A stretch of 64,000 bases of DNA from an uncultured Chloroflexia bacterium (GCA_963827985.1 CAWHDI010000040.1:16682-80681); one strand, 5' to 3'; positions 24,868 through 36,168 are shown, counted from the first letter of the stretch. Notes: generated by a model from the letters alone, not told the origin. Made by a program: numbers and translations.

Positions 24868-26061
24868 CTACCGGTAGATCGAGGCGTTAACCCAGGTTGC
24901 CCAGTCCTGTGTTGCGTTCGCATTGTTGGCATCCACGTCCAGGATGAAGTCGGCCTTTTTCCCGGCATAAGCTGAGAGTGGAACGTCAATCGTCGCCAGT
25001 GAACCGTTATAAGGCTTCGTGACATTTGCAATCCAGACATTGCCGGCAGTTGTGCGGATCATGACTTTGAATGTCACGTTACCGGCGCTGGCGCCCTTGA
25101 TAAATCCAACTTGCGAGTAAAAATGATCGTTGGCCTGCACAGTGTACGAACTGGCCATCTGGATGTAGGCCCCCTGGATAAGGCCGCCTGTGACCCACTG
25201 CGGATGAGTCTCCAGGACCTGAGTATAGACCTTGTCATCCTCCAGAGTAGCGTTGGTTCTCCAGAGGGCAAAGCCCCTGTTATCCGTGTCGAGGCCGGGG
25301 AAGGGCAAGGTGGTATTGCTTTCCCATGAAGCTGCCGGCGCCTGGGCCACGAAATCAAAAACGGTCGTTGTTAAAGGTATATGTGGCAGAGGGAACGGCA
25401 GGGTCGGCGTAGAAGGGGAACTGCCGCTTACAAGCACCTGGGTACCAGCGGTTACGCTGCCGTAGGAATTGGCTGCTGTGAGAGCATATACCGTCGAGCT
25501 TCCCGGTGATACTGTTGCGGATCCGCTGGCCGCCACGTTGCCTATCCCCGGTTGGATATTTACTGAACTGACATTGGATACGCTCCAGCTTAGTGTCGAT
25601 GAACTGCCTGATGAGATGCTGTTGGGGCTGGCCCCGAACGAGTTGATAACGGGCATGCCTGAGCTTGACGGTGGAGTGCTAGGCAAGCTTGAGCCCGAGA
25701 TTATTACCTGTGTCGTGGCAGTTGTACTGCCTGAGGAATTGGAAGCGGTCAGTGTGTATAACGTACTTGTCGAAGGTACAACCGCTCTCGTTCCGCTGAC
25801 GGCCACATTTCCTATCCCGTTGTCCATGCTTACGCTGGTGGCCCCCGTTACGCTCCAGGTCAGAGTCGCCGCGTTGCCGGCGGAAATACTGGCGGGGTCG
25901 GCGCTGAAAGAGTTTATCACCGGCATTTGCCCGGATGGGGACGAGGGAGTGGGTGTTGGTGTTGGTGCCGGCGTGACAGGAGTTGTGGGGCTAGCCGGGA
26001 TATATATACATCCGCATGCCAATATTAAGATTGAGACCATAACCAGTAACAGTTTTTTCAT
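24868..26061 (-). CDS. Secreted lipoprotein with two tandem ~88-aa Ig/PKD-like repeats and a C-terminal domain of unknown function
   Basis: Start MKKLLLVMVSILILACGC (lipobox), Pro/Thr linker, then repeats beginning MPVINSFSADPASIS... and MPVINSFGASPNSIS.... Confidence 0.7.
   Translation of the reverse strand: MKKLLLVMVSILILACGCIYIPASPTTPVTPAPTPTPTPSSPSGQMPVINSFSADPASISAGNAATLTWSVTGATSVSMDNGIGNVAVSGTRAVVPSTSTLYTLTASNSSGSTTATTQVIISGSSLPSTPPSSSGMPVINSFGASPNSISSGSSSTLSWSVSNVSSVNIQPGIGNVAASGSATVSPGSSTVYALTAANSYGSVTAGTQVLVSGSSPSTPTLPFPLPHIPLTTTVFDFVAQAPAASWESNTTLPFPGLDTDNRGFALWRTNATLEDDKVYTQVLETHPQWVTGGLIQGAYIQMASSYTVQANDHFYSQVGFIKGASAGNVTFKVMIRTTAGNVWIANVTKPYNGSLATIDVPLSAYAGKKADFILDVDANNANATQDWATWVNASIYR
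25402..25926 (-). repeat. Tandem in-frame ~265-bp duplication encoding the two Ig-like repeats
   Basis: Protein repeats at aa 76-165 and 166-250 of the 24868-26061 product share MPVINSF.A.P.SIS.G...TL.WSV.....V....GIGNVA.SG...V.P.S.T.Y.LTA.NS.GS.TA.TQV. Confidence 0.6.
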
Positions 26062-26607
26062 TTTTGAATTCCTCCCCTTTTTAGACTTATTCGGTACCCA
26101 AGCCCGGTCATCATGAAGCTTACTGTTAACCCCTCCCAACAATATTAGCAAATTGTTAGGATGTCATATTGTAAACGAAGCTGACTAAATATTCCACCAT
26201 CGTGTCCTGCCCCCCTGTTTCAATTGTAGCGGTGAACTGCCCGCATCGCCAAACAACGGTCTCTGCAACGGTGTTTAACCCGTCTTATAGAAATGAGCGC
26301 CGTCTCCCTTTACCACCAGGGCTATCAAGAATAATTGCTCCTTGGATTCTGAGTTTTGAAATGTTTAGTGTTTCGTGTTTAGAACTTAGAATTTTCCCCC
26401 TTTGTTTGGAATTTGGTATTTGGAATTTCCCTTCGTACCAAACGAAACGGTACACGGTCCTTAAGTATCAGCCTGACTGTCATGGGGGCGTTGAATCCCG
26501 ATCTATCGGGATTATAGCAAATGTTCCCCTTTCTCTTCAGGGAGAGGATATCCATCCCATTATTATTTTGGCGCAGCCGGGGCTATAATAAGTCCGGAGG
26601 TGGTTAT

Positions 26608-26913
26608 ATGGCTGTGAGAGCTAACAAAAAGTCCGAGGCCGTGCTGGGTGGTGCGACGGGTGAGCAACGTTTTTATGCAGTTGACGGATGTGTGTACAGC
26701 GGTTTGCCTGATATGGCCGATTGCCTGGAGCACATGTCTTCCGATTCATTCAGTCATCACGTTACGTCAGCCAACAACGACTTCGGCAATTGGGTCAGGG
26801 ATGTCTTGCATGACGGTAAGCTGGCATCCGATCTGGACAAGGCCGCCAACGCCGCTGATATGGCACGGATAGTCCGTTACCGCATTCACTGGCATCAGCG
26901 GACCAAACATTGA
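26608..26913 (+). CDS. Hypothetical protein
   Basis: RBS GGAGGTG 6 nt before the ATG. 101 aa, no recognisable domain. Lies between the noncoding 26200-26600 region and the transposase. Confidence 0.5.
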   Translation: MAVRANKKSEAVLGGATGEQRFYAVDGCVYSGLPDMADCLEHMSSDSFSHHVTSANNDFGNWVRDVLHDGKLASDLDKAANAADMARIVRYRIHWHQRTKH

Positions 26914-27700
26914 CCGGCACGTTTACAAGCAAGGAAACGTTTCAATATCCGGATCCAACGACGGGTAAACTGTGTCCCCAATAACTAGCCGGGCTTCGTC
27001 ACGGGGCGTTTTAAACTCGAATCCAACGACGGATTTCTTGACCTGTAAGTGTCTGGTTTGGTCGCCAAAGGTCATTTTAATGCCATAGATGTACGCCCAT
27101 AGATGATCGGTCATAATAACTTTTGGAATCCTGCCAGTACGCTGATAGGCTTCTTTTAGAATGTCCTGCACGTCCTCTACCCTCTTGGTCGGGGATAATT
27201 TGGATGCGATAAGAAAACGGGTTTTTACGTCTATCACGTCCAATAGCCAGTAATCTTTTCCACCTATGTTAATTACAGTTTCATCCGCAAGCCACACGTA
27301 CCCGACTTCGGGCTCGCATCGGTTTGTTACGTTGACAGTACCTTTTGTGAATTGTGAAATCCAACTATATACACCATAATCCGACACGTCCATGTCGTAC
27401 AGTTGCCGTAGTTCTTGCCGGATGCTATTAACTGACATTCCCCTGTAATGCATCGAAATCGATGCAGCGATGGCATTTATAGAGGTTTTCATGTGTTCCA
27501 GTGTGTCTTTGGTATTAAACCTGTGATTACATGAATGGCCAAGGAAATATTGTTCACCTGTATTTGTTCCGTCTTTTACAACATCCGTGGAATTGCAGTA
27601 TTTACAGGTAATCGGTTTAGCTTCCATATAGTCCATATTTTCAGTCTAACAATAAGAGACTCCAAGTGGCAATAGTTTTGAGTTTGACTGCACTGGTATA
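26900..27700 (-). mobile_element. IS1-like insertion sequence (ends not defined)
   Basis: Transposase CDS of IS1 size. I could not identify terminal inverted repeats by eye. GC is intermediate between the host and the adjacent AT-rich island. Confidence 0.4.
26923..27636 (-). CDS. IS1-family transposase (single-ORF InsAB-type, Zn-finger + DDE)
   Basis: 237 aa. N-terminal CKYCNSTDVV...GHSCNHRF zinc finger, then DDE-like YVWLADETVINIGGKDYWLLDVIDVKTRFLIAS...IMTDHLWAYIYG. The size matches fused IS1 InsAB (~232 aa). Confidence 0.65.
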   Translation of the reverse strand: MDYMEAKPITCKYCNSTDVVKDGTNTGEQYFLGHSCNHRFNTKDTLEHMKTSINAIAASISMHYRGMSVNSIRQELRQLYDMDVSDYGVYSWISQFTKGTVNVTNRCEPEVGYVWLADETVINIGGKDYWLLDVIDVKTRFLIASKLSPTKRVEDVQDILKEAYQRTGRIPKVIMTDHLWAYIYGIKMTFGDQTRHLQVKKSVVGFEFKTPRDEARLVIGDTVYPSLDPDIETFPCL

Positions 27701-27744
27701 CTGGTTTTGATTACCCAATGCATTTATCAAAGAGGTAACTCAGT

Positions 27745-28320
27745 ATGGGAACGAATAATAATAGAAAACAGAATTCGCTTATTGATGAAACTAAAAGTCT
27801 TTGTGCAATCGGAAGAGGGGTAATACTGACCAATGCCACATGGATAGAGAATCTATTGACCTCAATTATTGCAGATTGCTTTGAGCCTACTGATAAAGAC
27901 AATTCCAGTATGGGGTTTGAAATCCCACTTACCGATAAGGCTATAGCATTAAAAGGAATAATTCTAAAAAGAATGGATTTCCGTGATAAGATAGAAGTAT
28001 TTACAGAGTGCGTTCAAGTGGCGAACCCGACAGTTTATAAGGACAATCTGCCGCTAATTAAGTGTATTACTAAGGAACTGAACACACTTCGAGAATTTCG
28101 CAATTTGCTTGCACATTCACCAGCCGATTGGTCATGGACTCAGGATAACCATATTTTCACAATATCACAGTACAAAAAGGAGCTATGCAAACTCTCAAAA
28201 TCGATGAAGACCGATTGGAATCAGAAATTAACAGGGGGGCTAAGGTGTGGGCACTCTTACTTCAGCTATGGCATCTTATCAATATCAGACCTGAATACGC
28301 CCAAATCTATGCTAAACTGA
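27745..28320 (+). CDS. HEPN-domain protein (Abi/Swt1-like Rx4H motif), putative RNase
   Basis: 191 aa, AT-rich. Helical protein carrying LREFRNLLAHSP, i.e. R-N-x3-H (Rx4-6H), the catalytic signature of HEPN RNases of abortive-infection and TA systems. Confidence 0.55.
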   Translation: MGTNNNRKQNSLIDETKSLCAIGRGVILTNATWIENLLTSIIADCFEPTDKDNSSMGFEIPLTDKAIALKGIILKRMDFRDKIEVFTECVQVANPTVYKDNLPLIKCITKELNTLREFRNLLAHSPADWSWTQDNHIFTISQYKKELCKLSKSMKTDWNQKLTGGLRCGHSYFSYGILSISDLNTPKSMLN

Positions 28321-28401
28321 GTACAGTAACAAGGGCACAACATCATGAATGGTTTAAAAATATTCGTTCCCCACAAAAATAGGAACTACAAACTCGTAAA
28401 A

Positions 28402-29301
28402 TCAATCAAATAAATCTAACTGTTCCCCGCCAGATATTACCTCTATTACTTTCACCACTTCATAGCTGGTTTTTAATACTTCGCCCGCATAATCATAATG
28501 ATGTGTTTCCTTTAATAGCACGTGTATCGCATCCCCCGGTTCGATTTTAACCCTTCTAGCTTGAAACTCAGCAAGCCATTCCTTGTCACTTATCATGGCA
28601 AGAAAATTCCGTTTCTCTTGTCGTAATTCCCATTGAGACTCACCGAGATAGTCAGGCTTCTTCACCTTAACTATTTGCTCGGTTTCATTTTCTATACGTT
28701 TGCTTTCAAGTAATTCATCTATTGACTCAGGAGCCATGTTGAACTCAAGGTTGAATTCGGCCTTGTCCACACTCGTAATATAGGATGCCTTATCCCCCGG
28801 CAATAAAAGTTTCGTACCCTCCGATATCCTCTGGATACCCTCCAATAAAGCACGGGGTTGGATTGGTTCATAGTCATCAAGCCAACGTACTTTTGTCTCG
28901 TGCGCCGCAACGTCAATTTGTCCTATCAACGGTTTTAAATCTGAGATGCTAGTAATTCGTACCTTGCCATCTAAGAAATTAATCATCAGGAATTTGGCTT
29001 TTACTAAGAATTGGCCAACTATGGGTTTCCACTCCAGATTGTAAAGAGCATCATCTGGAATTGCACGGAGCAAGTTGCTGAACCATGTTCTAAGAGAACC
29101 AGCTTCTATATCTTCCAATAGAAGAACTGGCTCTATTTTATTATCGATGACACCTACCAGTGACTTATCAATAAATTGAAATGTCTCTATTAGGTCATGT
29201 GTGACTTGGAATATTCGAGATGGCCTCTCAGATTTCTTTAAGAAATCTATTTCCAAGCGAAAATCCGCTTTTGGGATTTGCATTTTGCCCCATTTTATCA
29301 T
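28402..29301 (-). CDS. Hypothetical 299-aa protein (no recognisable domain), second gene of a two-gene AT-rich operon
   Basis: Clean ORF 45 nt downstream of the proteasome-like gene on the same strand. Codon composition is AT-rich like its neighbours. Confidence 0.6.
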   Translation of the reverse strand: MIKWGKMQIPKADFRLEIDFLKKSERPSRIFQVTHDLIETFQFIDKSLVGVIDNKIEPVLLLEDIEAGSLRTWFSNLLRAIPDDALYNLEWKPIVGQFLVKAKFLMINFLDGKVRITSISDLKPLIGQIDVAAHETKVRWLDDYEPIQPRALLEGIQRISEGTKLLLPGDKASYITSVDKAEFNLEFNMAPESIDELLESKRIENETEQIVKVKKPDYLGESQWELRQEKRNFLAMISDKEWLAEFQARRVKIEPGDAIHVLLKETHHYDYAGEVLKTSYEVVKVIEVISGGEQLDLFD

Positions 29302-29346
29302 CTACGAACCACCAATATCAAAATGCTCGTTGACGACAAATTATTC

Positions 29347-30126
29347 TTATGGTTTGCATATCCAGTCTGATATACGTTTGAAACCAATTCTTTTCTCAAT
29401 TCCAGTTTGTATTTCTTTGATCTCGGGTTGGTCAACTAACTTGAATCCTTCGTGTTCCGTTATAGTAGCCATCTGTATATCACCACCTATATAAGGAACA
29501 TATGAACAGGTTTCGGTTATTGCCATTATTACAATCCGTTTAAGTGACTCAATGGGAAGTTCGCTATTAGCCAAGCTCTTTTGCAAGCCTAGCCTTTTGA
29601 ACCAGTACTCACAAATAATGCCTTTTCCATGTATACGATAGCCTATTACTTTATCTGGTACCATCGGTAAGCCCCCATGAGCAGGTAATTCAACACAGAT
29701 TACACTTGGTTTATCTTCTTCATATCCACATATAAGCATGTTCAGATTAAAACCACGAATCAATGTCCTAACAACTTCATCCCCAAGACCTTTGATTCTT
29801 TTCAGTGCATCGTCCTGAACAATTTGTATATATTCTATGTATAGTTCTCTAAAATTTGCCGAAGGCATAAGCTTGGATTTTCTAGCCATCTCGTCAATTA
29901 ACCATTTACGATAGCCTTCTTGCGATCCTATTGACGTGCAGCCGACATTCTCCGTAATTTGCCAAAGCTTTTGTGAATAATCATTAAATCCAGTAAAAAT
30001 CTCGCCTGTATCCGTGAGACTCAACCTGCTATCTGTAGCCAAAACTATCCCATCTATCCCGATAAAAGCCATTGCAATACTCATTGATGTATCCCTCCCA
30101 CAACTAAAATGTCTGTCATATCGCAT
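29347..30126 (-). CDS. Proteasome beta-subunit/HslV-like Ntn-hydrolase family protein
   Basis: Near-N-terminal MSIAMAFIGIDGIVLATDSRLS...SQKLWQITENVGCTSIGS matches the proteasome-beta/HslV core (GxDGVVLAADTR...K(I/L)F.I...G.AG). 259 aa. The true start may be a downstream Met, leaving a short propeptide. Confidence 0.55.
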   Translation of the reverse strand: MRYDRHFSCGRDTSMSIAMAFIGIDGIVLATDSRLSLTDTGEIFTGFNDYSQKLWQITENVGCTSIGSQEGYRKWLIDEMARKSKLMPSANFRELYIEYIQIVQDDALKRIKGLGDEVVRTLIRGFNLNMLICGYEEDKPSVICVELPAHGGLPMVPDKVIGYRIHGKGIICEYWFKRLGLQKSLANSELPIESLKRIVIMAITETCSYVPYIGGDIQMATITEHEGFKLVDQPEIKEIQTGIEKRIGFKRISDWICKP

Positions 30127-30574
30127 TTTATCATGGGTATCAAGAAGCCAAGAGAATCCGTTATCATTTTTTTTCGTCCTCCAATGCTCTATAATTTGGG
30201 ATCATTTTCCTCTCGAGATATAATAGAACCCCTTTGGGAGAGGGCAGGGTGAGGGTAAAACACTGGTATAATAACCCTCATGTCAAAACTTGTTCTCGAT
30301 CTCCACGACATATTTAATAAAGGCTGGAGCATCGATGCTGAGCTCAACAGGATCGTAACTGAAGCTGTAGCAAAAAGATTACCCTGGTTGAGATTATTCC
30401 TGGCAAAGGCTCCGGCCAACTGAAAAAGCGTGTTTTACGCTTTCTCGCTCAACCTGACATAAAGAAGCTCTACCACCGGGTTGAAAAAGACGACAAGAAC
30501 TTCGGCAGAATTTTTATCCATTTCCGCTTCTGAAACCGGACCTCAAATTGCAGATTGCACCCGGTGAAGGATAC

Positions 30575-30606
30575 AGGGCCGCCGCATAATGGGCGGCCCT
30601 GCTTTC
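30575..30606. terminator. Perfect 9-bp stem / 8-nt loop hairpin (AGGGCCGCC-GCATAATG-GGCGGCCCT) with a weak T tract
   Basis: Seen directly at 30575-30600, between the AT-rich island and the 3' end of the ALDH gene. Possibly a bidirectional terminator. Confidence 0.4.
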
Positions 30607-30664
30607 AATCGGCTTTAACTCGGTCACGGTCCAGGCCGGGAATTTATTCTTGAACTGGCTTTCA

Positions 30665-32215
30665 CTACTTGCCCTCGTTCTGCATCTTCTGCAGGAACGG
30701 CAATACTTTGAAGAAGGCCTTGATTTTCTGGGAAGTGCTTTGCGAGTACATGAACTTCATAGCATCTACCATTCCTTCCAGGCTGCCTTGCAGTACCGGG
30801 TAATGGTAGAATTCCTTCTTGGCCTTATTGGTATTCTCGGTAATGGATTTTATATCGGTAAACGCCCTCAAACCGACCTCGCTGTGATAGCATCCGATGC
30901 CTGATTCCTTGACGCCTCCGAAGGGCAAGGCCGGAACGGCGAACGTTATCAATGCATCATTGATATTGACCGAGCCGGTCTTGATCTTGGCAGCGATTTT
31001 TCTCCCTTCCTCGATGTCTCTGGTAAATACTGCCCCCGAGAGGCCGTAAGTTGTGCTGTTAGCAATCTTGACCGCTTCGTCTATATTGTCATAGGGTATT
31101 ACCGGCAGCAGCGGGCCGAATGTCTCATTCTTCATCACTTTCATGTCCAGTGTGACATCCGTGAGCACGACGGGAGGCAAGCACATGCCGTCCAGTTTGC
31201 AGTCCATGACTCCTTCGGGCAGCAGCTTTGCCCCTTTGGCCTTGGCGTCCGCAACCTGGTCTTCCACGATTTTATACTGCGATGTCATGGTCATGCTGCC
31301 CACGCAGCCTGTGGCCGTCCCGGATTTGAGGTTCTTTACGATGGCCATTAGCTTTTCTATGAATTGGTTGTAGACGGGACGTTCCACCAGGCATATCTCC
31401 ATGCCTATGCAGGTCTGGCCGCAATTGCTGAATGCGCCCCACGCTACGGCATTGGCGGCCCTGTCCAGGTCGGCGTTCTTCGTAACGATGGCAGCGTCCT
31501 TGCCGCCCAGTTCCATGATGGACGGAACGAGCCTTTCAGCCGCCTTCATATTCACTTTGCGGCCGATCTCCGTGGAACCCGTGAAAAAGAACATATCGAT
31601 ATCGGGGTTTTCTATCAGCGCCTGTCCCGTCACGGATCCGTTACCGGTAGCTATATTGACAACTCCCTCAGGCAACCCGGCTTTTTCCAGGAATTCCCTC
31701 ACCATGATCCCGCAATCGGTCGTCTGGCTGGAAGGCTTTAGTACCACCGTGTTGCCGGCGGCGATGGCTGAGATCACAGGACCTACCGACAGGCAGAAAG
31801 GATAGTTCCAGGGAGAGATTATTGCAACCACTCCCTTAGGCTCATATACATAATATAATTTCCTCCCCGGCATCATGGGATTTCCTTTCACCTTGACGGG
31901 GGCCAGGGTCTTGTCAGCGGTCTGGGAGTAATAATGTGTTACGTCGCAGGATGAATATACATCAGCCAATAGCGCCTCGAATTTGGTTTTACCGTTTTCG
32001 GCCGATACCCGTGCTGCGTAATCAAGTGCATTTTCGGTCAGTACCTCCGCGGCACGTGCCAGTATCTTCATCCTTTCCTTGATAGGGGTTGCCGACCACG
32101 TCTCAAATTTCTTGCGGGCTTTTTCTACCAGGGCGTCGACCTCTTTTCTGTCCATCTGCGGGTACGAAGCGACTTTTTGACCGGTCATCGGGTTGATTAC
32201 ATCAAATGTACTCAT
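30665..32215 (-). CDS. NAD(P)-dependent aldehyde dehydrogenase
   Basis: 516 aa, PF00171-type ALDH (GSTEIGRKV, ELGGKDAAIV, catalytic Cys in NCGQTC). Confidence 0.9.
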   Translation of the reverse strand: MSTFDVINPMTGQKVASYPQMDRKEVDALVEKARKKFETWSATPIKERMKILARAAEVLTENALDYAARVSAENGKTKFEALLADVYSSCDVTHYYSQTADKTLAPVKVKGNPMMPGRKLYYVYEPKGVVAIISPWNYPFCLSVGPVISAIAAGNTVVLKPSSQTTDCGIMVREFLEKAGLPEGVVNIATGNGSVTGQALIENPDIDMFFFTGSTEIGRKVNMKAAERLVPSIMELGGKDAAIVTKNADLDRAANAVAWGAFSNCGQTCIGMEICLVERPVYNQFIEKLMAIVKNLKSGTATGCVGSMTMTSQYKIVEDQVADAKAKGAKLLPEGVMDCKLDGMCLPPVVLTDVTLDMKVMKNETFGPLLPVIPYDNIDEAVKIANSTTYGLSGAVFTRDIEEGRKIAAKIKTGSVNINDALITFAVPALPFGGVKESGIGCYHSEVGLRAFTDIKSITENTNKAKKEFYHYPVLQGSLEGMVDAMKFMYSQSTSQKIKAFFKVLPFLQKMQNEGK

Positions 32216-32390: not shown

Positions 32391-32575
32391 GGCCTCTGGA
32401 ACAAATTGTTCGCTCTCCTTTCCAAACTTGGGAGGCGCCACCGTTTCCAGTGGTACCCTCGGGCTTTCGCCACCGGCCGGGTAAACAATGCCTTTTCGGT
32501 TTAGTTATCCGGCTCGAAGAGTTCGTATTTAGTTAATGGTGCAAAAATAGCATGCTTAAGTCAATATGTCAATGG
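32391..32575 (-). promoter_or_regulatory. Copy 1 of a ~185-bp conserved promoter + leader element upstream of the ALDH gene
   Basis: About 90% identical to 35984-36168. Read on the minus (gene) strand it has TTGACA-17 nt-TATTTT, then a GC-rich leader with paired segments. Confidence 0.6.
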
Positions 32576-32801: not shown

Positions 32802-35468
32802 CTAGTATGCTTCCTGATACAGCTTGATTATGTCGTTGGGATCGTTGACCGGCCGTCCGTTAAAGATGACTGCCGTATCGGCTATGGCGTGGAAAGCGCA
32901 GATCGGCAGGTTCTCTTCCGGCACGCCGACGTCACGCAGCTTCGTGGGATGTCCTACCTTCTTCATGAGCGCTTCAATGGCGTCTGCCGCGGCCAGGGCG
33001 GCCTCTTTGTCCTGCATGCCTTTGATATTTACGCCCAGCGCATGCGCCACCTGTGCCAGCTTACCGGCAGATGTTTCCACGTTGTAACGCATCACCTTGG
33101 GCAGGACGATGCCGCAGGCTGCCCCGTGGGGCACATGATGCAGCGCGCCGATAGTGTGTGCCATGCCGTGCGCCAGCCCGACCTGTGCAACGGTAAAGGC
33201 CCATCCTGCCATGGTGGCCGCCAGTTGCATATTCAGCCTGGCCTTCTCATTCTTCCCGTCTTCTGCCACCAGCGGCAGGTTCTCATTGATTATGCGTATG
33301 GCCTGCAGGGCCATGCCGTCGCAAATAAGATTGGACATGGTGCTGGTCATGGCCTCGATGGCATGCGTCATGGCGTCCATGGCCGTCGTCACGGTCAATA
33401 GCCTGGGCAGTGACATCGTAAACCGCGGGTCCAGGATGGCCACGTTTGGCGTGATCCTGGCGTCCACTATGAAGAGCTTGCGCCCTGCGCCTTTGCTGGT
33501 TAATACGGCAACATTGGTCACCTCACTGCCCGTACCGGACGTTGTCGGGATGGCGATATGAGGCGTTTGCGGCTCTGTCAGCACCAGCATGTTCAGATGG
33601 TCGTTGGCCTTGCCGCCGTTCTTAAGCGTTACGCAGACGCCTTTGGCGGTATCGATAACGCTGCCTCCTCCTACGCTCACCACGCAGTCCGCCTTCATTT
33701 CCCGTGCAGCATCGGTTGCTGCATCCACTGATTCGAGGTCGGGGTCTGCCGGCACTTTGTCGAAAATACCGGCGCAGAAATTGCCCAGCGCATTTTTCAC
33801 CAGGTCGGCCAGTCCGGCCTGCCTCACGCCCGGGTCAGTCAGGATGATTGCCCGCTTGCAGCCCAGGTCAACAATGGCTTTGCTGATTGCCGGCAGCGAT
33901 CCGTGTCCGGCGACCACGTTGGTAGGACAGTTATATCCGAAGCCGTCCACCCGTTTGTAATCCGACATAATCTGGAAAGTCATATTGGTTTTGGCGTCCG
34001 CCATGGAATTGACATGCACCCGCTTAATCTGGACATACTCGTGCAGGCCGGCGACACCCAGCTCACGCCCGACGCCTGACTGCTTGTATCCGCCGAATGG
34101 GCAATAATCGGCAAAGATGTGGTAGTTATTGATCCACATCGTGCCGGTGCGCACCTGGGCGGCAATCCTCTCGGCACGGGCGGTATTGGATGAGAATACG
34201 CCGCCGCCCAGTCCGTAGATGGAGTCGTTGGCAATCTCCACCGCCTCTTCGTCGCTGCTGTATTTCATAACGCAGACTACAGGCCCGAAAATCTCTTCCT
34301 GTGCGATGCGCATTTTATTGTTCACCTTGGCGAAGATAGTCGGGGCATAATAATATCCGCCCTTGATGCCTGCTACCTCCACACGTTTGCCGCCGGTTAT
34401 GAGCTCGGCCCCCTCTTCTTTGCCGATCTTAACGTAGCGTTCGACGGTTGCCAGCTGTTCCTTGCTTACCAGTGGCCCCTGGTGGCTGGTGGGGTCCATC
34501 TGGTAGCCGACACGCAGGGCTTCGGCCCGCTTCTTCATTTTGCCGAGGAACTCGTCATATATCTTGGCATGTACCAGTACCCGCGTGCCGGATTCGCATA
34601 CCTGCCCCTGGTGGAAGAACGTGCCGAAGCAGGCCCCTTCTACTGCCAGCTCCATATCAGCGTCATCGAGTATGATATTGGCCGATTTGCCCCCCAGTTC
34701 CAGTGTCACTTTTTTGACTGTCTCCGAGGCCATCCTCATGATCTCACGGCCGACTTCTGTGCTCCCGGTAAAAGCGACTTTATCCACGTCGGGATGCGTG
34801 CAAAGCACCTTGCCCAGCTCTCCGCCCGGACCGGTTATGACATTTAGAACGCCATCCGGTATGCCTGCCGCTTTGGCTGCCTCTGCGATGATGCAGGCGG
34901 TAATCGAAGTGTTCGAGGCCGGCTTTAACACAATGCAGTTGCCCATTGACAGCGCCGGCACTATCTTCCAGAAGGCCATGGTCATGGGGTAATTCCAGGG
35001 TATGATCCCCACGCAGACGCCTATCGGCTCCCTGCGTATATATTCGCGTCCCGGGGCGAACACGTTGCCTGAGGCAGGTATTTCCTCCTCCCACGGGAAT
35101 TTGGTGGCGGCTGCCAGGCTCAGGTTGCGTATAAATGAAATGCCCAGCAGCGGTTCATATTTGGCCAGTCCCATAACATGGCCGGCATCCATGGATTCTG
35201 TTGCCGCCAGCCTTAATCCCTGCTGGGCAATCTGGTCGGCAAAATCCTGCATCTTGGCCATGCGTGCCCGTGGTGATAGCCCGCTCCATACTCCGCTCTT
35301 GAAAGCCTTGCGGGCAGCTGCTATGGCAGCCTCCGCGTCCTCCTTGCCCGCCCGTGCCAGCGTGGCAATCGGCATTTCCGTGCCCGGATCGATCGATTCG
35401 AATGTTTTCCCGCTTGCCGCATCCACAAATTTGCCATCGATAAATAGCTTGTACTGGTCCACTGTCAA
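32802..35468 (-). CDS. Bifunctional aldehyde dehydrogenase (PF00171-type) / iron-containing alcohol dehydrogenase fusion protein
   Basis: 888 aa. N-terminal ~490 aa is a classical ALDH (ELGGKSANII, catalytic Cys in QGQVCESGTR). C-terminal ~390 aa is Fe-ADH (GGGSVIDTAKG, metal-binding His cluster GLAHGMAHTIGALHHVPHGAACGI). Confidence 0.85.
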   Translation of the reverse strand: MTVDQYKLFIDGKFVDAASGKTFESIDPGTEMPIATLARAGKEDAEAAIAAARKAFKSGVWSGLSPRARMAKMQDFADQIAQQGLRLAATESMDAGHVMGLAKYEPLLGISFIRNLSLAAATKFPWEEEIPASGNVFAPGREYIRREPIGVCVGIIPWNYPMTMAFWKIVPALSMGNCIVLKPASNTSITACIIAEAAKAAGIPDGVLNVITGPGGELGKVLCTHPDVDKVAFTGSTEVGREIMRMASETVKKVTLELGGKSANIILDDADMELAVEGACFGTFFHQGQVCESGTRVLVHAKIYDEFLGKMKKRAEALRVGYQMDPTSHQGPLVSKEQLATVERYVKIGKEEGAELITGGKRVEVAGIKGGYYYAPTIFAKVNNKMRIAQEEIFGPVVCVMKYSSDEEAVEIANDSIYGLGGGVFSSNTARAERIAAQVRTGTMWINNYHIFADYCPFGGYKQSGVGRELGVAGLHEYVQIKRVHVNSMADAKTNMTFQIMSDYKRVDGFGYNCPTNVVAGHGSLPAISKAIVDLGCKRAIILTDPGVRQAGLADLVKNALGNFCAGIFDKVPADPDLESVDAATDAAREMKADCVVSVGGGSVIDTAKGVCVTLKNGGKANDHLNMLVLTEPQTPHIAIPTTSGTGSEVTNVAVLTSKGAGRKLFIVDARITPNVAILDPRFTMSLPRLLTVTTAMDAMTHAIEAMTSTMSNLICDGMALQAIRIINENLPLVAEDGKNEKARLNMQLAATMAGWAFTVAQVGLAHGMAHTIGALHHVPHGAACGIVLPKVMRYNVETSAGKLAQVAHALGVNIKGMQDKEAALAAADAIEALMKKVGHPTKLRDVGVPEENLPICAFHAIADTAVIFNGRPVNDPNDIIKLYQEAY

Positions 35469-35983: not shown

Positions 35984-36168
35984 GGCACCTGGCACAAATT
36001 GTTTACTCTCCTTTCCAAATTTGGGAGGTGCCGCCGTTTCCAGTGGTACCCTCGGGCTTTCGCCACCGGCCGGGTAAACATGCCTTTTTGGTTTAGTTAT
36101 CCGGCTCGAAGAGTTCGTATTTGGACAATGGCGTAAAAATAACATGCTTATGAGAATATGTCAACTCA
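35984..36168 (-). promoter_or_regulatory. Copy 2 of the ~185-bp conserved promoter + leader element (upstream of the HesB-like/ALDH-ADH operon)
   Basis: Direct repeat of 32391-32575. TTGACA-17-TATTTT on the gene strand. Confidence 0.6.

Follow-up and report, generated by a model that had tools for sequence, protein, structure and literature searches.

A low-GC islet in an uncultured Chloroflexia bacterium, probably the remnant of a cargo-carrying insertion sequence

The islet and its interpretation

We have examined a low-GC islet in a 64,000-nt stretch of DNA from an uncultured Chloroflexia bacterium (GCA_963827985.1, CAWHDI010000040.1:16682-80681); the whole stretch is called the window, and positions are counted from its first letter. 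The islet (27033..30250, limits approximate, no strand assigned; GC content 0.396) measures 3.2 kb, is contiguous at its low-GC composition with a transposase gene and holds three accessory genes: one for a proteasome-like N-terminal nucleophile (Ntn) hydrolase, one for a protein of the LAPAL family and one for a protein with the Rx4H motif of HEPN proteins (the Rx4H gene). Our best reading is that the islet represents the remnant of a cargo-carrying insertion sequence (IS; tIS for the cargo-carrying kind), or else an IS6 pseudo-compound transposon that has collapsed, the cargo genes being independent of one another. We put at roughly 0.65 the probability that it is a decayed tIS remnant of the zinc-finger IS6 type with three independent accessory genes.

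In this scenario the window genes would have arrived on such an IS. A DDE transposase would once have moved the whole unit through terminal inverted repeats, a deletion would have removed the 3′ third of the transposase gene (the region of the catalytic Glu) together with the far IS end, and the unit would now be immobile. The cargo would comprise an intact, propeptide-free proteasome-beta-like Ntn hydrolase whose Ser1 is exposed by removal of Met, an intact LAPAL_fam protein with an oligonucleotide/oligosaccharide-binding (OB) fold and an Rx4H (HEPN-like) gene that is frameshifted and lies on the opposite strand. The intact cargo may act in conflicts of mobile elements with phages or hosts. 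The evidence for this reading is that the low-GC islet is contiguous with a truncated transposase and stands alone among housekeeping genes, that the proteasome-like and LAPAL families both ride intact ISs of the same type elsewhere, that the three genes are found apart elsewhere, except for the proteasome-like and LAPAL genes of locus L067, and that an independent assembly, contig L097, breaks at both islet edges.

GC content was 0.39 between 27640 and 30260, compared with 0.53 in both flanks and a mean of 0.514 over the window. This is the lowest-GC 2.6-kb segment of the window, about 3.7 standard deviations under the mean, the next lowest segment elsewhere being at 0.475. A first-pass annotation made from the sequence alone had noticed this drop; it was right that GC falls there but overstated the change as 57% to 37%, the measured values being about 53% and 39%. 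A scan for open reading frames (ORFs) recovered the three that it had placed in the islet, at 27745-28320 (plus strand, 191 aa), 28402-29301 (minus strand, 299 aa) and 29347-30126 (minus strand, 259 aa), abutting a transposase ORF of 237 aa (26923-27636, minus strand). Their Lys/Ile/Asn/Glu share, described as very high, is indeed raised, but only mildly (0.29-0.31 versus 0.25 in a neighbouring aldehyde dehydrogenase, ALDH). Horizontal acquisition of the islet and its physical link to an IS, both proposed at that time, are supported; the genes around it are ordinary metabolic ones.

L097 is a Logan contig of 3.3 kb (run ERR10755942) that equals window positions 30280..27003 exactly; its two ends overshoot, by about 30 nt, the points at which transposase homology and low GC cease. 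If Logan contigs come from a k=31 assembly and these ends are 30-nt k-mer overhangs, the island-specific bases would run from about 27033 to 30250. The breaks at the islet edges suggest, as a hint, branching of the assembly graph caused by presence/absence polymorphism or by repeats in the sampled population.

A truncated IS6-family transposase adjoins the islet

The transposase gene (26923..27636, minus strand) was characterized with Pfam, NCBIfam and tblastn searches that used full-length relatives as queries. Its product carries an N-terminal zinc ribbon and matches the Pfam families rve and DDE_Tnp_IS240. The best NCBIfam match was IS6 (NF033587) at 81.1 bits, under the 125-bit cut-off, and IS1 (NF033558) reached 49.9 bits, under the 100-bit cut-off. 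Full-length relatives, all encoded beside homologs of the cargo genes, are 343-373 aa long and all have an N-terminal zinc ribbon of the IS1/IS1595 type. Their IS6 scores pass the cut-off in L001 (130.9 bits) and L010 (129.7) and fall just under it in L008 (118) and L018 (112), and the IS1 profile gave 60-72 bits, again below its cut-off. The IS1/IS1595 zinc ribbon scored 23.5 bits in the window (cut-off 28) versus 35-47 bits in the relatives.

The tblastn alignments showed that homology to the relatives spans approximately residues 9-200 (nt 27612-27037) and ends at nt 27034-27037. The last ∼37 codons of the ORF (26923-27033) are unrelated read-through, and the same queries recovered the remainder of the transposase, beyond residue ∼200, in no frame. 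The low IS6 score of the window copy is explained by this truncation. The segment N-x-I-E-R, which we take to carry the catalytic Glu, lies past the point where homology stops and, therefore, the gene is a truncated, inactive IS6-family transposase and not an IS1 transposase, as it had been labelled; only its N-terminal zinc ribbon is of the IS1/IS1595 type. A zinc-finger clade of IS6 and the tIS concept have been described (Varani et al. 2021, PMC7986276), and the window transposase appears by sequence to fit that clade. No second copy of the transposase or of the islet was present in the window.

Two intact genes, probably cargo

The proteasome-beta-like gene (29347..30084, minus strand) is intact and was assigned by means of Pfam, a family profile and residue conservation. 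Its product scored 21.5 bits against Pfam Proteasome (PF00227), just below the cut-off of 22.4, and four homologs carry a precomputed PF00227 annotation. The family profile matched the archaeal proteasome beta subunit 3h4p_a over its full length (E = 1.7e-6), with the Ser that follows Met aligned on Thr1; full-length matches to archaeal beta subunits ranged from E = 1.7e-6 to 1e-4. An exhaustive search gathered 485 representative clusters at E ≤ 1e-3, 161 of them at E ≤ 1e-10. Among 152 family members, the nucleophile was Ser in 86 and Thr in 49 (Ser/Thr in 135/135), Asp17 was present in 141/141, the equivalent of Lys33 in 138/140 and that of Gly47 in 99/143; Met preceded the nucleophile in 132/133, and the median length was 243 aa. 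In the window protein, Ser follows the initiator Met, and Asp17 and the equivalents of Lys33 and Gly47 are present. The criteria Thr1/Ser1, Asp17, Lys33 and Gly47 follow Fuchs et al. 2021 (PMC8665760). Judged by profile and residues, it is a genuine proteasome-type Ntn hydrolase, as had been predicted, but the protein most likely counts 245 aa from Met15 instead of 259.

A conserved “GRD” upstream of Met-Ser was considered as a propeptide or a repeat and rejected, as it corresponds to a GGAGG ribosome-binding site; therefore, the real start is most likely Met15 (nt 30084), where public gene calls also begin. Removal of Met alone would expose the predicted Ser1 nucleophile, with no propeptide. 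Propeptides are likewise missing from most non-canonical proteasome homologs (Fuchs et al., PMC8665760). The family resembles the homologs reviewed there (HslV, BPH, Anbu, PPH, AAH and others) in its Ntn fold and its Thr1/Ser1-Asp17-Lys33-Gly47 set, in being propeptide-free and in that some of those families are also spread by mobile elements. It differs from them, as they are described, in its length of ∼245 aa, which includes segments inserted with respect to the beta subunit, in lacking an adjacent HslU-type ATPase and in being carried by ISs or integrase islets. Indeed, no gene for an HslU-type AAA+ ATPase was found in or beside the islet or next to the homologs examined. Our committed guess is that the hydrolase would be an active, stand-alone Ser-Ntn peptidase. 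Such propeptide-free Ser/Thr proteasome homologs form a small family, strictly conserved in its catalytic set, that travels on ISs, integrase islets and phage-like contigs.

The second intact gene (28402..29301, minus strand) encodes the 299-aa LAPAL_fam / PDC-S42-like protein, which begins with a helical domain and ends with an OB fold. It had been annotated as having no recognisable domain. However, residues 15-289 match positions 2-291 of the 292-position NCBIfam profile LAPAL_fam (NF053583) with 86.3 bits (cut-off 60), and residues 198-298, that is, the OB domain only, match positions 201-299 of the 302-position PADLOC profile PDC-S42 at E = 8.7e-10. The protein also matches phrog_3243. 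We collected 255 homologs spread over many bacterial phyla. An AlphaFold2 (AF2) model (mean predicted local distance difference test score, pLDDT, 80.7) showed both domains; no structural match was found for the N-terminal helical domain, which the model suggests is new, and the modelled OB fold probably binds nucleic acid. The window protein thus shares with PDC-S42 and LAPAL_fam (“putative phage structural protein”) a full-length LAPAL_fam match above the cut-off and a matching C-terminal OB domain, together with the absence of a fixed partner across loci and the frequent presence of restriction-modification and Abi-type (abortive infection) genes as neighbours. It differs in that its N-terminal two-thirds are unmatched by PDC-S42, and nothing supports the structural role implied by the LAPAL_fam label.

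The defence link of one islet product anticipated by the first-pass annotation is borne out to the extent that this family is listed as a PADLOC defence candidate. Because of that listing, of its restriction-modification and Abi-type neighbours and of its carriage by prophages and ISs, our committed guess is that LAPAL would be a single-gene defence or exclusion factor of mobile elements, sensing or binding nucleic acid through its OB fold. A literature search on PDC-S42, the LAPAL motif, ISMhu11, anti-phage proteasomes and defence genes as IS passengers found nothing directly relevant. A function for LAPAL or for the hydrolase family would extend both the inventory of mobile-element conflict genes and the functional range of proteasome homologs.

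LAPAL was present in two phage records and in 17 IMG/VR contigs; in both phage genomes the gene belongs to an accessory stretch close to the genome end and not to a structural module. These occurrences, the phrog_3243 match and a proteasome-like homolog in a phage-like contig of many small ORFs (L004) would suit a prophage remnant or a moron instead of IS cargo. We regard this origin as very improbable: no integrase, structural or any other phage gene lies within ∼10 kb of the islet in the window, the islet is only 3.2 kb long and abuts a transposase, and the proteasome-like profile had no matches in IMG/VR or phage records.

Both intact cargo families ride insertion sequences elsewhere

In the case of the hydrolase, the same IS6-type transposase follows the 50%-identical homolog (L008). 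In L001, a pair of 47-nt inverted repeats bounds an IS that contains the 35%-identical homolog, its transposase and a 127-aa ORF. Small ORFs come after the 55%-identical homolog, and further homologs are found beside tyrosine integrases or in phage-like contigs.

LAPAL loci were sampled in 80 species-representative genomes, to which 19 viral or phage loci were added. Among 145 immediate neighbours, the commonest Pfam families were DDE_Tnp_IS1595 (12), its zinc ribbon (9), IS1 (5) and IS240 (4), followed by Mrr, DNA methylases and AAA_21. According to custom profiles, a transposase lies at most 600 nt from LAPAL in 20 of the 80 genome loci (13 IS1595, 6 IS1-like and 1 zinc-finger IS6). In at least 11 loci the LAPAL-transposase unit is enclosed by terminal repeats 19-47 nt long; among these loci are L032 (41 nt, 2.3 kb), L044, L064, L062, L045, L039, L019, L037, L018 and L010; the repeats of L018 and L010 (28-31 nt) have a common inner motif, GGTTGAT/GGTTGGT. 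Two loci hold intact IS1595-type elements with LAPAL and a perfect 8-bp target duplication, GATATTTT in L062 (3686-6891, 28-nt repeats) and ATGAAGAA in L064 (5295-7928, 47-nt repeats). From these terminal repeats and target duplications it follows that LAPAL is a true IS passenger in three related transposase families. L001, L010 and L018 showed no target duplication.

Two zinc-finger IS6-type tISs carry LAPAL along with ORFs without a Pfam match, of 289 and 264 aa in L018 (3998-7750) and of 156 aa in L010 (4099-6967). In two Syntrophaceae loci (L027/L028, 4222-5976), the gene 10 nt upstream of LAPAL encodes a 584-aa protein in which an N6/N4 DNA methylase is fused to an Mrr-like or inactive restriction endonuclease domain, and related proteins flank LAPAL in L058, L070 and L072.

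Overall, passenger genes lie inside terminal repeats together with a transposase in L001, L010, L018, L032, L044, L062, L064 and others. ISs with passenger genes are a known kind of element, and each cargo family either is already catalogued or has catalogued relatives. Within the IS6 family, ISDsp3 of Dehalococcoides is a tIS whose passenger gene is hypothetical (Varani et al. 2021, PMC7986276). The elements described here resemble this type in the DDE transposase of ∼340-370 aa (in the full-length relatives), which bears a CxxC zinc finger at its N-terminus and is scored as IS6, in the passengers of unknown function within the inverted repeats of the relatives L001, L010 and L018, and in the origin of the closest relatives, which come from Chloroflexota or Dehalococcoidia genomes and metagenomes. 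The window copy differs from it in being truncated and without demonstrable repeats or target duplication.

ISs of the IS1595 family with passenger genes were reportedly treated by Siguier, Gagnevin and Chandler in 2009. The LAPAL homologs inside IS1595-type elements with 28-47-nt repeats, two of them with 8-bp duplications (L062, L064), are of that sort, whereas the window transposase is IS6-like and not IS1595. To our knowledge, neither the proteasome-like hydrolase nor LAPAL has been described as IS cargo. LAPAL emerges as an uncharacterised OB-fold family that recurs as a passenger on IS1595, IS1-like and zinc-finger IS6 elements; such carriage, seen in roughly one in four sampled genomes, suggests that simple ISs can ferry accessory or defence genes.

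The association of LAPAL with three related zinc-ribbon DDE families, specifically and within terminal repeats, together with an OB fold that suggests nucleic-acid binding, could also be explained if LAPAL were an accessory factor of these transposases (IS1595, IS1, zinc-finger IS6), for instance a DNA-binding helper or regulator of transposition. We hold this to be decidedly unlikely. A transposase is missing next to LAPAL in 75% of its loci, prophage genomes carry LAPAL by itself near their ends, and where a transposase is present LAPAL differs from locus to locus in how it is placed and oriented towards it. Moreover, as far as we know, most members of the IS1595, IS1 and zinc-finger IS6 families lack LAPAL.

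Several points weigh against reading the islet as a decayed tIS. A search of 26000-31000, complemented by alignment of the L001 and L018 repeats, gave no significant pair of terminal inverted repeats, and no statistically supported target duplication was found in the window. The element could be a pseudo-compound IS6 transposon that has lost one copy instead of a single tIS. The proteasome-like and LAPAL genes stand in tandem on the same strand, 45 nt apart, and this arrangement and a second, independent adjacency of the two families in L067 argue for some functional link between them. As the window has no supported repeats or target duplication, IS carriage there is deduced from the relatives and from the adjoining truncated transposase; one end of the element would have been deleted there, and the other is not identifiable.

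The best matches to the relatives' terminal repeats in the window, at 27696-27711 (plus strand), at 30278-30258 (minus strand) and in a GACAGAC...TTTTAGTTG motif at 30117-30101, were rejected, as 60% and 27% of shuffled sequences score equally. The best local match to the L018 repeat (30253..30279, minus strand, score 22, reached by 27% of shuffles) abuts the start codon of an Smr-like gene and is kept as a weak candidate for a surviving IS terminal repeat.

The three probable cargo genes are rarely found together

Alignment with the homologs P0130-P0139 indicated that the HEPN-like (Rx4H) gene (27745..28382, plus strand) is a probable pseudogene. Eleven homologs were retrieved, most of them 218-220 aa long. 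The segment EFRNLLAHS is invariant, with R119-N-L-L-A-H124 present in 11/11 sequences, and for this reason the Rx4H motif is real. However, the window copy carries a frameshift in an A-run near 28180-28190, the conserved C-terminus continuing in the ORF 28185-28382, and it falls ∼14 residues short of its 218-220-aa homologs. The identical frameshifted sequence is present in L097.

The first-pass annotation had called this product a 191-aa HEPN protein with an R-N-x3-H motif. The motif RNLLAH is there, but the gene is frameshifted and neither a profile nor a fold identified it as HEPN. The profile searches that had been proposed as a check, including those against Pfam and PADLOC, returned the partial match of LAPAL to PDC-S42 and, for the window Rx4H protein, no significant match in Pfam, NCBIfam, PHROGs or PADLOC. 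One family member matches Pfam DUF4145 at E = 0.042, a PDB profile search with the family gave 0 matches at E ≤ 10, and the PADLOC CARF_HEPN/Csx1 profiles matched 1 of the 11 members weakly (best E = 2.7e-4). The AF2 model of the homolog P0130 (pLDDT 79.8) is helical with a beta hairpin, and the structural comparison, likewise proposed beforehand, did not favour a HEPN fold: the best Foldseek match had E = 0.34 and no HEPN protein was among the top 50. Thus, the invariant R-N-L-L-A-H in a helical protein and the weak matches of one homolog recall the HEPN Rx4-6H ribonucleases (RNases) of Abi, toxin-antitoxin and CRISPR-accessory systems, whereas the family differs from them in having no significant profile or fold match and no conserved antitoxin or partner, and in the frameshift of the window copy.

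Homologs of the Rx4H gene occur in unrelated contexts, without LAPAL, the proteasome-like gene or this type of transposase. The Rx4H gene was found at none of the LAPAL loci (0/80 genome, 0/19 viral or phage), and neither LAPAL nor the Rx4H gene stood beside any proteasome-like homolog in ∼22 distinct loci. A proteasome-like neighbour of LAPAL appeared in 1 of the 80 genome loci (L067) and in 0 of the 19 viral or phage loci. In the case of the closest LAPAL homolog, 80% identical, the neighbouring genes are not those of the window.

These observations bear on the self-contained three-gene immunity or toxin system, made up of a HEPN RNase, an Ntn hydrolase and a partner, that the first-pass annotation had put forward. 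All three genes do share one low-GC islet, the Rx4H motif is invariant, and part of LAPAL matches a PADLOC candidate. We nonetheless give this system hardly any credence, as the Rx4H gene is frameshifted in two assemblies and lies on the opposite strand, its homologs are never near LAPAL or proteasome-like genes, its family has no significant HEPN profile or fold match, and the three families come together nowhere else in our sample. The examination of gene neighbourhoods suggested at the time went the other way, with the proteasome-like and LAPAL genes together only in L067 and the Rx4H gene with neither of them; the supposedly novel partner turned out to be already catalogued (LAPAL_fam, with a partial match to PDC-S42). 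On the terms of refutation that the first-pass annotation had itself set, the three-gene system fails. With the islet read as a decayed tIS, the HEPN-proteasome “system” would be a chance assembly of cargo on a dead IS, and a false lead is removed.

L067 (4709-8121, Ca. Binatia, CBDBEO010000004.1) carries a distant proteasome-like gene on the minus strand (hhalign 97%, E = 1.7e-11) and LAPAL on the plus strand, in divergent orientation and 345 nt apart. The pair is followed by an IS1595 transposase and by an 892-aa restriction-modification methylase/specificity fusion, and the GC content of the block is below that of its flanks. A 15-nt inverted repeat around the pair was set aside, since about 0.4 such repeats are expected by chance on a rough estimate.

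A module of two genes would account for these adjacencies if hydrolase and LAPAL cooperate, LAPAL serving for instance as sensor or recruiter and the Ntn peptidase as effector, with the IS as no more than a carrier. In the window the two genes are co-oriented, closely spaced and both intact; in L067 they adjoin an IS1595 transposase and a restriction-modification methylase; and both families are rare, so that two adjacencies exceed random placement. However, the L067 genes are divergent and not co-oriented, the proteasome-like gene is missing at 79/80 genome and 19/19 viral or phage LAPAL loci, and LAPAL is found at none of the ∼22 distinct proteasome-like loci. Besides, the nearest LAPAL homolog has other neighbours, the nearest proteasome-like homologs (55% and 50% identity) precede small ORFs or a transposase, and common residence on mobile elements could account for the rare co-occurrence. 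We therefore rate cooperation of the two proteins as rather unlikely. Unlikely too, in our judgement, is an undescribed IS-borne conflict pair in which LAPAL would recognise invader nucleic acid or a DNA-binding protein and the propeptide-free hydrolase would cleave a host or phage target or, more broadly, in which LAPAL would be a defence gene repeatedly captured by zinc-ribbon DDE ISs. If true, it would make zinc-ribbon DDE insertion sequences vehicles for immune genes.

Flanking genes and other features of the window

The genes that flank the islet are ordinary and include a histidine kinase, an ABC transporter, two aldehyde dehydrogenases and a PAP2 protein; neither phage genes nor a defence island was found among them. 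The element would have inserted in a metabolic neighbourhood, with a DUF5752-like gene on its left and an Smr-like gene on its right. The left-flank ORF (26521-26913, plus strand, 130 aa) matches DUF5752 weakly (22.2 bits, cut-off 23), and its start is uncertain. On the right, a small Smr-domain-like gene (30280-30533, plus strand) begins exactly at the islet edge. It is frameshifted near 30385, with the N-terminus in frame 0 and the conserved “LVEIIPGKGSGQLKKRV...” part in frame +2, and represents either a pseudogene or an assembly error.

The islet had been said to end at a strong hairpin. The hairpins at its right edge (30230-30281) are modest (-16.5 kcal/mol over 61 nt), and the strong one lies further out. 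This GC-rich hairpin (30574-30601) has a 10-bp stem, CAGGGCCGCC/GGCGGCCCTG, within 56 nt that fold at -33.9 kcal/mol, and is located past the Smr-like gene, which converges with the ALDH gene on the hairpin's other side. It probably serves as a terminator in both directions, and is probably also the hairpin that was meant.

Two Moco (molybdenum/tungsten cofactor) riboswitches are present on the minus strand, at 32399-32531 (62 bits) and 35992-36123 (67 bits), each upstream of an aldehyde dehydrogenase gene, namely ALDH 30665-32215 and a fused ALDH/Fe-ADH (iron-containing alcohol dehydrogenase) gene at 32802-35468. They point to a bacterial host and to cofactor-controlled aldehyde metabolism.

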